Positions 28,309 through 46,101 of a DNA stretch of 64,000 bases are shown here, one piece after another (within the stretch, counting starts at the first letter, position 1; every line of letters begins with the position of its first letter). The position numbers and the translations under genes are program-made. Under the pieces are notes generated by a model. It did not search any database. It was given only the letters and a program-made list of their open reading frames with translations, and was not told where the DNA came from. The DNA comes from Octopus vulgaris (taxonomy: Eukaryota), in assembly GCA_951406725.2 (NCBI GenBank), contig OX597819.1, forward strand, positions 14,012,001 to 14,076,000. The letters run 5' to 3'.

Positions 28309-28517
28309 ACGGGAAGCTTTATGAAAATAGACAAAAGACGAAGGCAGGTGGAATACAAACAAACAATTGTATTAGTATGGCGCTCAGGAATATAAATAAA
28401 ACAAGTCTTTTACGTTTCGAGCCTAGGCTCTTCAACAGAAAGATACACAGAAAAGAAACACAGAAAGAAACAAGGAGAGAAAAAAAAATGCGTGCAGAGG
28501 CTAGCGAATCAACATGG

Positions 28518-41983: not shown

Positions 41984-42811
41984 TAACTGGAACAAAGGTA
42001 GAATATTTGAACAGAAATTTTGGTAATGAAAGGTTCCAATCATATACACCTGCTTGGTCCATTGTTGACCACTGGACTCCAGTATAAGGTACAATGCATT
42101 TCTTGGTTCAAGCAGCCTGACCCAAAATAGCATACCCTTTTAATTTATGTTAGAATGGTTAACAATAGGTAAAGGTGTGCTTTTGTGTCTTTGTTTTAAT
42201 CTCCTCTTTGCTATTTTAGGTCCTTCTCCCTTCATGCTGTTACTAACGACCCAACTGTGAAGTAGGACTGAAACCTGTCTGCATTGTTTTAGCCATCTAG
42301 ATTTTTTTTTTAAACTGACAAGGGATCCTTTACATGGTCACATGACTTCCAAGAGAAGGTAGTCAGATAGATAGATATGTGTGTGTGCTAAAGGTGAACA
42401 ATTTGAAACTTTGTAGTTAGTGTCCTTGTAATAGTTTAATAAGTACGTACTCTAGTATATATTAGTGTACTAGAGTATGTACTCTAGTACTCTATAAGTA
42501 TTGAGTAATCCTTCGGTTTAATGTTAAAATGTTTTTATATAAAACTTGACTTAGAAAACATTTATGTGTGTGTGTGTGTGTGTGTGTACATATATCAACG
42601 TCATTTCATATCCATTTTCTATGCTCGCTTGGGTTGGACACCGACAGGTGCTGGCAACCCGGAGAGCTGCATCAGGCTCCACTTGTCTGTTTTGGCATGG
42701 TTTCTATGGCTGGGTGCCTTTCATGTGGCACCAGCATGGGAGCTTTTTATGTGGCGCCAGGACAGGTGCTTTTTATGTGGGGCCAGCATGGGTGCTTTAT
42801 ATGTGTATATA

Positions 42812-42876
<65 letters not shown>

Positions 42877-43593
42877 GCACACACACATATATATATATAT
42901 ACTTTCTGAAATGAGGCAGATTTGAATTGTATTTCACAGAAATAAAACAAAATAATTATTGTAAAACGGGGAGGAGGAAATTGTGAAGCATTTTACTTTC
43001 TTTTTTTTTATTATTATTTTTTGGGGTGAAGATGGACTTACTTGAACACACACGCAGAGTGCATTCATGCATGGCTTGTGTGTGACTTAGAAACCACCTT
43101 TTTTTTTTGTTTACCTTCCTTTAAGCAAGCACCCATTGGTGTTTAGCCGACACAGAGCTTGCAATAGGAGGAACCCTTTCTGATAAGTTTTTGAAATCAT
43201 TGTAAGTAATAAACGCAGCCACCCACCCCTCTAACTAACGATGATGTGAGTTGGTAAGGAAGTTAGTCATCTTTTATGTGAGTCTCGTTAAAGTCTTTGA
43301 AACTTGCAGTAATTAATAACCCTATTCAGGATCATCTCTGACCTATATCAAGCCTGCCAGATCATGTCTAAAAATAAATTAAACCCTTCCCACCTTTATT
43401 TTTACCTTCTGGTTTTCTTCTGCTCTTTGCTTTATATATTTTGTCATGTATTTTATTTTTCTTATATATTTCTTTTTCAATTTATTTTCTCAAATTTTAA
43501 CTTCTGTCGCCATTCTGTTCGCATTCAGTGGTTTTGTTCATATGATATACAGTCAACAAATATTACATATACATACATATACACATGCATACA

Positions 43594-43627
<34 letters not shown>

Positions 43628-43900
43628 GTGTTTTTACACCTTTTACCATAAAGAGAATTTCTTCTCCACAGTAACTGCATTGAATTTACCTTTAGGCATT
43701 GAAATATGTCACAAACATGTCTTAACTAATTTAAAGTTCACTTATGCCAGAACTCTGCTTGGTGCTGATACCAACAAATATATATATATATATTATATTA
43801 AATTAGAGACAAAACCACTATTATGCAAATCAAACAAAGAAAGACTTAAGCCAATACATAAAATAATTTATATAAATTTAGAAATTTAACAATTATAAAT

Positions 43901-43961
43901 AACCACTACGATCGTTTCATGTCTTATTTCAGCACATCTTTGAGACATTCTTCAGGTGGTT
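43901..43961 (-). ncRNA. Minimal type I hammerhead ribozyme
   Basis: AACCAC-CTGAAGA-ATGTCT(loop)AGACAT-GAAAC-GATC-GTA-GTGGTT: 6-bp stem I, 6-bp stem II, palindromic short stem III, full core. Confidence 0.85.
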
Positions 43962-44018
43962 TCAAAACCTTCTTGGCGAGTTTTAAACTATGTTTTAAAC
44001 TCGCCAAGAAGGTTTTGA

Positions 44019-44062
44019 AACCACCTGAAGAATGTCTCAAAGATGAAACGATCGTAGTGGTT
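44019..44062 (+). ncRNA. Mirror-copy hammerhead with a 17-nt deletion in stem II
   Basis: AACCAC-CTGAAGA-ATGTCTCAAAGAT-GAAAC-GATC-GTA-GTGGTT; core and stems I and III intact, stem II damaged. Confidence 0.6.
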
Positions 44063-44256
44063 ATTTATAATTGTTAAATTTCTAAATTTATATAAATTAT
44101 TTTATGTATTGGCTTAAGTCTTTCTTTGTTTGATTTGCATAATAGTGGTTTTGTCTCTAATTTAATATAATATAATATAATATTTTACTATAAAATTGGA
44201 TTCAATCCTAAATCTGATTTTTCCCTGTAAATTTGGATTTATTCCCTAATATTTAT

Positions 44257-44289
<33 letters not shown>

Positions 44290-44311
<22 letters not shown>

Positions 44312-44655
44312 AAGAATAAAGAGAAAATGGAGAAGATTATTTATTAATTATAAAACATGACAAAATCTCTGACAGCTGTTTCAATACAGAAATCTTTAGA
44401 TAATTAATTTATAAAATTAAGATCATTATAAGATGAAGCTCTTCAGAGGTAGTAAAGATATACTGATCAGAAATACTTGTTGAGATAATGGCTATAAAAC
44501 CATTATATAGAAAAAGAGCTGGTTATAGAAGGCCTCGATCTAACACAGGGGGTTTATATGGTGACCTTATAGTTGAACTCTCTATAGATTGATAACTAAC
44601 CAGTATTTTCATTGGAATTATTATCCCTTAATGAGGTTTATTACCTTTACTTGAT
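44290..44655 (-). mobile_element. (TA)n-embedded element with degenerate hammerhead
   Basis: Minus strand CTGAAGA (44446-44440), a long AT-rich hairpin, then GAAAC-AGCT-GTC (44382-44371); stem I only about 2 bp. Confidence 0.5.
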
Positions 44656-44670
44656 TATATATATATATAT

Positions 44671-44867
44671 AACATGATTGATTGCTAGCCACTAAACCTT
44701 TTTTATTTTCTCTCTCTGCTTATTTTTGTGTTCCTTTCTGTAGAAGAGCGTAGGCTTGAAACGTAAAAGACTTTTTCACTTCCTGAACATTAAACTAATA
44801 CATCTATTTGTTGTTTGTGTAAACAAACCCGTCTTTGTCTTTTGTTTTGTTTTGTTGTAAATTCCAA

Positions 44868-44870
<3 letters not shown>
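44671..44870 (+). mobile_element. (TA)n-embedded short element with hammerhead-like motif, copy 3
   Basis: CTTT-CTGTAGA-A-GAGC.GTAG.GCTT-GAAAC-GTA-AAAG at 44734-44769; homologous to 15309 and 28309. Confidence 0.68.
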
Positions 44871-44909
<39 letters not shown>

Positions 44910-45183
44910 GTGATCACGTGACCGACCAGACCATCAGATGTTTTACACATCGCTGGTCACAATGCGTTCGCACTGTTTTAGCCTTCAAATGACGCCACCC
45001 TGCTGGCTAAGCGAGCAGGCCAACAGAAGAAAGAGAGAAAGAGTGGAGCAGGGATCACCACCCCCTGCCGGAGCGTCATGGAGGTTTTAGGTGTTTTCGC
45101 TCAATAAACACTCGCAACGCCCAGTCTGGGAATCGAAATCGCGATCCTATGACCACGAGTTTGCTGCCCTACCCACTGGGCCA
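44910..45183 (-). mobile_element. SINE family C, tail type 2
   Basis: Family C head followed by GGCCTGCTCGCTTAGCCAGC..ATTGTGACCAGCGATGTG..GGTCGGTCACGTGAT. Confidence 0.85.
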
Positions 45184-45788
45184 TATACATATATATATAT
45201 ATTTGTCCACTCACACACATATGTGAGTGAGTGGACAAATGAAAGAACAACACGTTTATTAGGATTTACATGTGTTATTCAAAACAGACCTAAGGAGACC
45301 GGCTCCATTAGGGGCCTGCGAAACTTGAAGTAGCATGGAATCTGAATCAAACTGTTTCAAATAATGTATGTATGTATGTGCTTACATATGTGATTGCTGT
45401 CTCTTGCGCTTCCTCATTCTCATTGACATTTCTGACTTTTGGTCCGTGACTTCTCAGATGATTATTCCTGCTGCAGATCTGCATGGCCTACTGGTCAGGT
45501 CTGCACACATCGTTACTCTTCCATCGCCATAGGATTTCAGTTGATGGTATGACAAATGACAAATGATGTCACCATAAAGAAACATCTGTACGTCATTGGA
45601 TTATGTTGATAAATGCTTGTACAACATGAGTGCCACTCTCTAAATCTCTGTGGTTTGTGCCTAGGGACAGGCTGAAGTGAGATGACTAGTAATCCTGTGA
45701 AACTAAAGGTTTTACATCAGTCTCCCGCTCCATGAAGGATGCTGTAACAGCCAGGGGTCCCTCACTCCTGTTGGTTTTATTGTGCACA

Positions 45789-46101
45789 GCTGTCAGATGG
45801 GTGTTGATTCAACAGAGTTTATTTGTCCTTTAATGGGTTTTGTTTCTCATATGTCCTATGAGAATCACTACCCTTACCAAGTAGGCTTGGTAGGGTTGCC
45901 AGTGTAGTTTCCGATTGTGCAACCATGTGACATGTTGTCCTGGGCTGTCAGATGGGTGTTGATTCAACAGAGTTTATTTGTCCTTTAACGGGTTTTGTTT
46001 CTCATATGTCCTATGAGAATCACTACCCTTACCAAGTAGGCTTGGTAGGGTTGCCAGTGTAGTTTCCGATTGTGCAACCATGTGACATGTTGTCCTGGGC
46101 T
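45789..46101. repeat. Near-identical 155-bp tandem duplication
   Basis: GCTGTCAGATGGGTG..CATGTTGTCCTGG twice, with one visible mismatch (TAATGGG/TAACGGG). Confidence 0.92.

Follow-up and report, generated by a model that had tools for sequence, protein, structure and literature searches.

A hammerhead-bearing palindrome in the Octopus vulgaris genome as the probable spliced 5' leader of a Penelope-like element, present as a head-to-head pair

Penelope-like elements (PLEs) have been described as inserting at AT-rich targets in units with a head-to-head repeat, a palindromic junction, a tail on one arm and an ATG at the start of hammerhead stem II (PMC3846280, PMC11167929). Penelope-13_HM has an inverted 5' copy with a hammerhead on each strand (PMC8557442), and pairs of hammerheads on opposite strands, 100-700 bp apart, have been attributed to truncated PLEs (PMC4209133). 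An architecture of inverted ends with one hammerhead per strand is already known, and is ordinary for PLE insertions. Here we analyse a unit of this architecture in a stretch of 64,000 nucleotides from Octopus vulgaris (assembly GCA_951406725.2, contig OX597819.1, positions 14,012,001 to 14,076,000 of the forward strand; hereafter the window, in whose own numbering positions are given). This unit, a palindrome with a one-sided extension embedded in (TA)n, has the features listed above for PLE insertion units, but it lacks an open reading frame (ORF) and is intron-less.

The explanation that best accounts for the unit, and which we consider probable, is that it represents the spliced 5' leader of a PLE with Hydra-clade motifs, present as a head-to-head pair in (TA)n and likely produced by reverse transcriptase (RT) priming both target ends on one sense RNA. 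The first-pass annotation of the window, made from the letters alone, had taken it for a non-coding PLE derivative with inverted ends, a description that stands as far as it goes, but had missed that the unit corresponds to the spliced 5' leader of the PLE RNA. The unit and its parts are laid out as follows.

About 43789-44258, both strands: palindrome plus one-sided extension in (TA)n, about 470 bases in total.
43778..43792, no strand: left (TA)n target run, grading into the AT-rich end of the short arm (from the sequence).
43789..43992, minus strand: short tail-less (S) arm, a spliced leader that begins in exon 1, includes the hammerhead and ends at the first 3' end site.
43901..43961, minus strand: intact type I hammerhead motif, predicted cut 43907/43906 (from a sequence pattern and a predicted fold).
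43969..43992, minus strand: exon 1 remnant, 24 of 28 nt, fused to exon 2 at 43969/43968, the point at which long copies are interrupted by a GT-AG intron of 0.95-1.3 kb (from comparison with long copies).
43989..43993, no strand: head-to-head junction of the two 5' ends.
43992..44174, plus strand: palindromic part of the tailed (T) arm, with the exon 1 remnant at 43992-44011 and exon 2 from 44012.
44019..44062, plus strand: second hammerhead motif, with 17 nt deleted, the 3' strand of stem II being gone.
44175..44258, plus strand: one-sided tail, about 85 nt long and bounded by the two fixed 3' end sites (putative RT start sites).
44259..44308, no strand: right (TA)n target run (from the sequence).

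The splice origin of the unit emerged from other genomic copies, obtained by targeted searches, which were compared with the window copy and are labelled here by L-numbers. Pattern matches fell into two classes according to what precedes the hammerhead, either an AT-rich stretch ending in TTTTAG or a short leader joined at the same point. L192, L193, L202, L243-L249 and L261 have an exon 1 of 28 nt followed by a 0.95-1.8 kb intron with a GT donor and the TTTTAG acceptor, and L194, from a distant subfamily, has its own exon 1 and a 3.6-kb intron. In these two subfamilies, which differ in exon 1, the intron borders of the long copies lie exactly at the junction that is closed in the short ones, and by comparison with the long copies the window arm is the precise exon 1-exon 2 product of GT-AG splicing. 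Its S arm is 98.6% identical to a natural copy by blastn and differs from exon 2 of L243 at 2 of 175 nt, while over the 22 nt of exon 1 that were compared there are no mismatches to L245, one to L248 and two to L243. An intron 3' end adjoining helix I is also found in the Penelope of D. virilis (PMC4209133), where, in the sections of that paper available to us, the spliced form of the motif is only predicted; here spliced copies exist in the genome.

Spliced and intron-bearing forms are both abundant. Exact 32-mers matched 38 spliced and 48 intron junctions of the window lineage genome-wide, and in the classified set 85 of the 160 arms, from at least two subfamilies, lack the intron at the exact GT-AG boundaries. 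None of the 64 spliced arms extends more than 30 nt upstream of the junction, and 21 of them end 28-30 nt upstream of it (19 on inspection, since two look like chance extensions). The boundary of exon 1 falls on TTAGTT or TCACTT, which we take to be initiator-like. Because the intron is lost precisely and the arms stop at a hard limit at exon 1, these comparisons point to a cDNA of a spliced sense RNA that ends at the transcription start, and we hold with high confidence that the unit would be such a cDNA, formed as a by-product when priming took place at the 5' copy of start sites that also occur in the 3' terminal repeat of the RNA. Two further ideas about the 5' end were dropped. An extra G before +1, considered as a sign of a cap, is present in hairpin centres and in L012, L034 and L069, with T or A instead in L001, L026, L054, L061 and L205; the idea that one arm is always full length was abandoned since the first search had selected full arms.

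The second line of evidence is the way in which the arms are paired. In a first set of 81 loci 54 were distinct, and at nearly all of these an S and a T arm point apart with a TA run at each arm end; the S arm ends near position 200 of a 281-nt natural reference, and either arm may be shortened at the centre. Among the first 100 motif matches listed, 27 of the 31 neighbouring pairs within 10 kb were divergent. Among the compared loci there are 40 divergent pairs with the motif region retained in both arms, against six other neighbour pairs, with no clean tandem array among these, and 39 of the 40 combine an S with a T arm (37 by script, and L011 and L138, which have variant tails, by inspection). 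With regard to splice state, 15 pairs were intron/intron (two of them being one duplicated segment), 17 spliced/spliced and none mixed, eight being unclassifiable, and an earlier, cruder pass had agreed. Matching splice state in both arms indicates that both trace to one RNA, and from the sequences of these copies the template was very likely a spliced sense RNA.

Subfamily marks likewise occur in both arms, a 7-nt deletion being shared in all six loci that cover the region. For 36 of 42 pairs the overlap was sufficient for an arm-to-arm comparison (5,534 nt), which gave 47 variants in both arms, 55 in T only and 49 in S only. Across the 54 loci no variant was found that marks one arm type throughout a lineage, and the palindrome is therefore not inherited as a unit. 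As a separate observation, L192 and L193 lie in near-identical 6.5-kb regions about 373 kb apart, each with an intron-bearing palindrome (arms of 1,852 bp, 99.3%), and are either a segmental duplication or an assembly duplicate.

Searching with the promoter region recovered copies with a coding frame upstream of the leader. L243 contains the end of a GIY-YIG frame, a 3' untranslated region (UTR), exon 1, the intron and a T arm that matches the window subfamily at 99% identity, and has an inverted, tail-less, intron-bearing S arm at its 5' side; its frame matched Pfam PF01541 (GIY-YIG) with an E-value of 2e-4 and 21.9 bits, just below the cut-off of 22.6. The nearly complete L252, from a sister subfamily, runs from a hammerhead and tail, through an ATG about 75 nt further on, RT pieces, an Asn-rich stretch and the endonuclease, to the 3' UTR, exon 1, intron and a second hammerhead. 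Directly ahead of its 5' hammerhead lie the final 7 nt of exon 1, in place of the acceptor, which indicates that in this one copy the 5' intron is gone and the 3' intron kept. Frames with PMG..S, YRDD and the GIY-YIG end lie upstream of exon 1, intron and hammerhead in L243, L244, L251 and L252, and the terminal repeat is tandem in L252 and inverted, with the tail, in L243. In full-length relatives the tail runs into the ORF start about 75 nt later, and four genomic copies, all of them broken or truncated, continue into the ORF. The PLE with RT and GIY-YIG domains that the first-pass annotation expected to be linked to the palindromes is present, in the L243 and L252 frames, next to the terminal repeat.

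The parent protein has 70 homologues at E<=1e-5, shows 30% identity over 307 aa to one annotated with PF00078, and has its nearest named homologue in Octopus sinensis (40% identity); Pfam RVT_1 did not match the three RT-bearing pieces. Inspection revealed SDKTRN (DKT) in L252, CTCRDKSKC (CxCx5C), CYLC (CxxC) and CRH (CxH), and no CCHH, and RIKWK aligns with RMRWK of the homologues at the position of the Hydra-clade RWK. The homologues carry the same marks. By its motifs, its (TA)n insertion and its hammerhead, the parent would be a Hydra-clade PLE, an assignment based on motifs. With the Hydra clade as described in PMC8557442 it shares DKT, the CxCx5C linker, CxxC and CxH around GIY-YIG, and (TA)n targets, but it has KWK instead of RWK, a tail of 85 nt and not 30-40, a long 3' UTR, an intron of 1-3.6 kb in the terminal repeat, and the Asn-rich stretch. 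That paper lists an octopus family of the clade, Hydra-1_Obim, whose hammerhead differs in sequence; two motifs of the family studied here had no match in its supplement.

Several observations surround the parent. The Asn-rich stretch lies between the RT thumb and the endonuclease in the frames of L244, L251 and L252, and one has been described for rotifer Penelope elements (PMC3846280). L266, L267 and L268 extend from the tail into the ORF start but lack the hammerhead owing to 5' truncation, and in L267 another tail-less end follows after only about 100 nt of ORF. A GIY-YIG search, in which the best 150 of 6,136 candidates were scored, also showed that the genome contains many copies, such as L112-L128, of a young PLE of Neptune type, whose frame of 781 aa (RVT_1, Cys linker, GIY-YIG) is unbroken. 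This abundant element was rejected as the partner of the palindromes, since its ends differ and it had no match in the long copies L192-L199 or L212-L241. At L105:2300-2602 a T arm and a piece of an S arm adjoin a truncated Neptune-type copy at its fold-back 5' end, with no TA run in between; the fusion is possibly a chimeric insertion between two PLE clades.

Within the window unit, 43789-43920 pairs with 44043-44174 (132 nt, 100% complementary) and 43935-43988 with 43992-44045 (54 nt, 98%), and a global alignment of the arms leaves a single gap, of 17 nt, in the plus arm at an ATG repeat. At the centre, the TATG-loop-CATA of the family is shortened, having lost the 4-nt loop and a few plus-arm bases. 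Stem I of the minus motif has 6 bp, stem II has 6 bp and an 18-nt loop, and stem III has 2 bp with a palindromic GAUC loop; its parts are AACCAC (43961-43956), CTGAAGA from 43955, GAAAC from 43918, GATC, GTA (43909-43907) and GTGGTT (43906-43901). These results bear out, in each detail examined, what had been noted from the letters: a palindrome of about 380 bp with a one-sided extension of about 85 bp inside (TA)n, a CUGAAGA/GAAAC-GAUC-GUA core with an AACCAC/GUGGUU stem I in each arm, a complete minus motif beside a plus motif short of 17 nt in stem II, and a predicted cleavage site at 43907/43906, with which the motif coordinates agree.

The core CUGANGA/GAAA/UH and stems I-III are present, and a strict type I descriptor run on both strands of the window found only these two sites. 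Genome-wide (2.8 Gb), a relaxed hammerhead pattern gave 3,548 matches and none in a reversed control, so that the copy-number check proposed earlier reveals a large family; a search started from the left arm yielded 1,296 candidates, the best 40 of which were scored, with 65 matches. The 17-nt deletion occurs at one of the 54 loci, the window itself, and two intact motifs are therefore the family norm. The core was invariant in 16 aligned motifs with a mean column identity of 60%, in a set picked by motif and hence partly circular, and the arm sets behind the stem counts, being anchored on the core, are partly circular too. Stem I was paired in 125-134 of the 138 arms at four positions with a nearly invariant sequence that shows hardly any covariation, the first position of stem II was paired in just 71, and the stem III loop was a palindrome, GAUC (84 arms) or AAUU (20), or else GAUU (18).

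Such alternating stem III palindromes fit, as expected, a dimer-type hammerhead, and the proposal of dimer-type hammerheads in inverted PLE ends holds up on the type I core, the palindromic stem III and the linked PLE. Metazoan PLE hammerheads share the type I core, the weak palindromic helix III and the opposite-strand pairs, but have a G10.1-C11.1 pair that is absent here (PMC4209133), and those of the Hydra clade have the same layout, stem II being flanked by one additional base on either side (PMC8557442).

Other hammerhead-like sequences were also noted. At 44725-44907, 450 bp to the right of the palindrome, another abundant repeat carries a degenerate hammerhead-like core that ends at a TA run, and further core-like sites lie at 28420 (minus), 15426 (minus), 54637 (plus) and 63807 (plus). 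L090:208-455, with a motif on each strand, and L119:335 represent other hammerhead families with a different stem I and the same GAUC stem III.

At the window locus the two hammerheads are, in our judgement, quite likely passengers without a role; that each strand has one reflects a single sequence having been deposited twice. For a read-through RNA the predicted structure is a hairpin with 86% of its bases paired at -287 kcal/mol, against -6.8 for the hammerhead fold, and this hairpin is predicted to bury both motifs. Whichever strand is transcribed, the antisense arm is made first and a single sense motif is present, so that a dimer in cis is impossible. These values, together with one broken motif, argue against hairpin formation competing with self-cleavage as the purpose of the design, which the first-pass annotation had proposed. 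Since the motif is uncut inside every copy, the template would have been uncleaved RNA.

In twin priming of L1 elements, two target ends are primed on one RNA, which leaves the 5' part inverted; L1 inversions involve no sequence duplication and their internal site is not fixed, whereas in the octopus units the two arms cover nearly the same sequence and each has a fixed 3' end. A related sequence of steps could produce the octopus units. The endonuclease would cut both strands in (TA)n, one target end would prime at the tail end and the other about 85 nt upstream, both cDNAs would be extended on the same RNA in the direction of its 5' end, and the 3' ends of the two would be joined through 1-4 nt of complementarity or by end-joining, which could give either loop orientation and shorten either arm to a varying extent. 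A purified PLE protein both cuts and extends the two target strands, starting at two internal sites that bound the tail; it is predicted to be dimeric, and ribozyme cleavage is not needed (PMC11167929); in the available parts of that work the two start sites are mapped and are not tied to the two arms of an inverted repeat. At L001:1277-1493 a 217-nt spacer between the arms is a 98% duplicate of same-strand DNA about 450 bp away, which excluded it as an ORF; it looks like a templated insertion made during the joining of cDNA ends.

We favour twin priming from two internal start sites of a single RNA, with somewhat more weight than doubt, because of the loop orientations, the S arms that reach beyond their T arms, and the two-strand, two-start PLE protein (PMC11167929). 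The strongest competitor is a fold-back, in which a single cDNA, started at the tail end and extended to the 5' terminus of the RNA, folds onto itself and serves as its own template up to the AT-rich S site, with loop flips and one-sided truncations following later. On the question of mechanism alone, fold-back with later rearrangement deserves a clear minority share, and as a full account of the unit we regard it as unlikely. It readily explains why the arms always agree in splice state and subfamily, why eight both-arm variants are each confined to one locus, and why both arms are near full length in 19 of 59 events; fold-back is also seen at the 5' end of the truncated Neptune-type copy in L105. 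It does, however, expect one loop orientation, and of nine intact centres five have the opposite one, three the expected one and one is symmetric. It also expects S to be nested in T, whereas in 15 of the 59 events the S arm extends beyond the T arm on the 5' side by more than 20 nt (the converse holds in 19). Nor does it by itself explain the fixed internal end site, the unique centres of up to kilobases in long copies or the templated spacer of L001.

A number of results weigh against our reading or fit its competitor equally well. L007 is a true S+S pair, the only one, lying across a TA run, and L269:2495-4637 has three intron-bearing arms that share variants (S, T and an inverted second T), the product of either a more complex single event or a later duplication. 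The eight variants present in both arms, each at just one of the 54 loci, fit fold-back or arm-to-arm conversion at least as well as twin priming; a both-arm variant of L020 recurs at two loci that differ elsewhere, is probably a recurrent mutation and settles nothing. T arms end at the S site, as is classic for twin priming, in 7 of 59 rows (6 distinct of 58 events), which is not clearly above chance, and loop flips and one-sided truncation can also follow insertion in any palindrome. On the side of the parent, all frames among the copies compared are broken or truncated and none is intact and full-length; the spliced-5'/unspliced-3' arrangement rests on one copy (L252) and 7 nt, and this only near-complete copy belongs to a sister subfamily whose leader is about 75-89% identical. 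An Rfam cmscan of 42000-46000, the covariance-model check suggested at the outset, returned no hammerhead family among 30 matches at E<=1, the matches being low-complexity or microRNA-like. Finally, targeted searches do not give a random sample of loci.

Far less probable is an independent non-autonomous palindromic element, resembling a retrozyme or a miniature inverted-repeat transposable element (MITE), with a unit of 470 bp, ribozymes on both strands and cleavage regulated by the hairpin. In its favour, many loci share a fixed centre and a one-sided tail, the top copies are 97-100% identical, and the hammerhead core is conserved, with a palindromic stem III alternating between GAUC and AAUU. 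Yet no arm-specific variant lineage runs across loci, the centres vary widely, the unit is the exact splice product of a longer element, the same S+T design recurs in intron-bearing copies with arms of up to 3,968 bp, and the predicted hairpin buries both motifs. Non-LTR (long terminal repeat) retrozymes are similarly short and non-coding, with a type I hammerhead and an origin in PLE terminal repeats, but form head-to-tail tandems and are thought to involve circular RNA, whereas here a linear leader of capped-end type lies head-to-head with an uncut ribozyme inside (bioRxiv 10.64898/2026.07.22.740005). A MITE or fold-back DNA transposon was rejected on the variable centres, the one-sided tail and the precise intron loss; a target duplication is unreadable inside (TA)n.

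Head-to-head palindromes and intron retention in PLEs have been attributed to an antisense template, with a call for a test (PMC3846280). Self-priming on such a transcript, with the intron-less copies arising by another process such as deletion, was built for exactly the head-to-head orientation and the intron-bearing copies seen here. We find it very hard to credit for this family, given the 85 of 160 arms, from two subfamilies or more, that lack the intron at exact GT-AG boundaries and end at exon 1 +1; splice signals of the sense strand cannot work in an antisense template, and the idea therefore misfits the spliced copies. Equally improbable is an assembly or library artefact at the window locus: palindromes are a well-known assembly hazard and no contig from four public runs spans the locus, so that the palindrome at this site rests on the assembly, but the 17-nt deletion and the asymmetric tail make the arms unequal, the same design recurs at dozens of unrelated loci with unique flanks, and head-to-head junction variants, albeit with short sides, occur in short-read contigs of other runs.

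Twin priming on a sense RNA could also explain the two forms of the family. We tentatively propose, with slightly more doubt than conviction, that the PLE primes both strands at two start sites of one sense RNA in which the cap-proximal intron is spliced and the intron of the 3' repeat is kept; 5' priming would then give thousands of spliced stubs, and 3' priming the intron-bearing copies. For intron retention in PLEs, selection has been offered as a reason (PMC2377424), and its significance has been called unknown (PMC8557442). Spliced short copies are not mentioned in the available portions of the Hydra-clade account (PMC8557442), and we did not find abundant, precisely spliced genomic PLE copies beside intron-bearing ones in the literature as far as it was accessible, where older papers and supplements may hold a prior mention.

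What distinguishes this octopus family is that one terminal repeat occurs in about as many spliced as unspliced copies, both kinds forming S+T pairs that do not mix, which points to sense RNA as the template and to a single molecule as the source of both arms. The sequences make it likely that PLEs of this family are copied from spliced forward-strand RNA. The finding bears on two questions, namely why PLEs keep introns and whether head-to-head palindromes need an antisense template, and the thousands of insertions provide a natural data set for PLE transposition. The near-perfect inverted repeats of 200 bp would, in addition, be putative double-stranded RNA substrates wherever they are transcribed. 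If our reading is true, twin priming would produce the head-to-head repeat together with the one-sided tail in a single step, intron retention would be positional, and the short palindromes would be a genomic record of the PLE transposition cycle.
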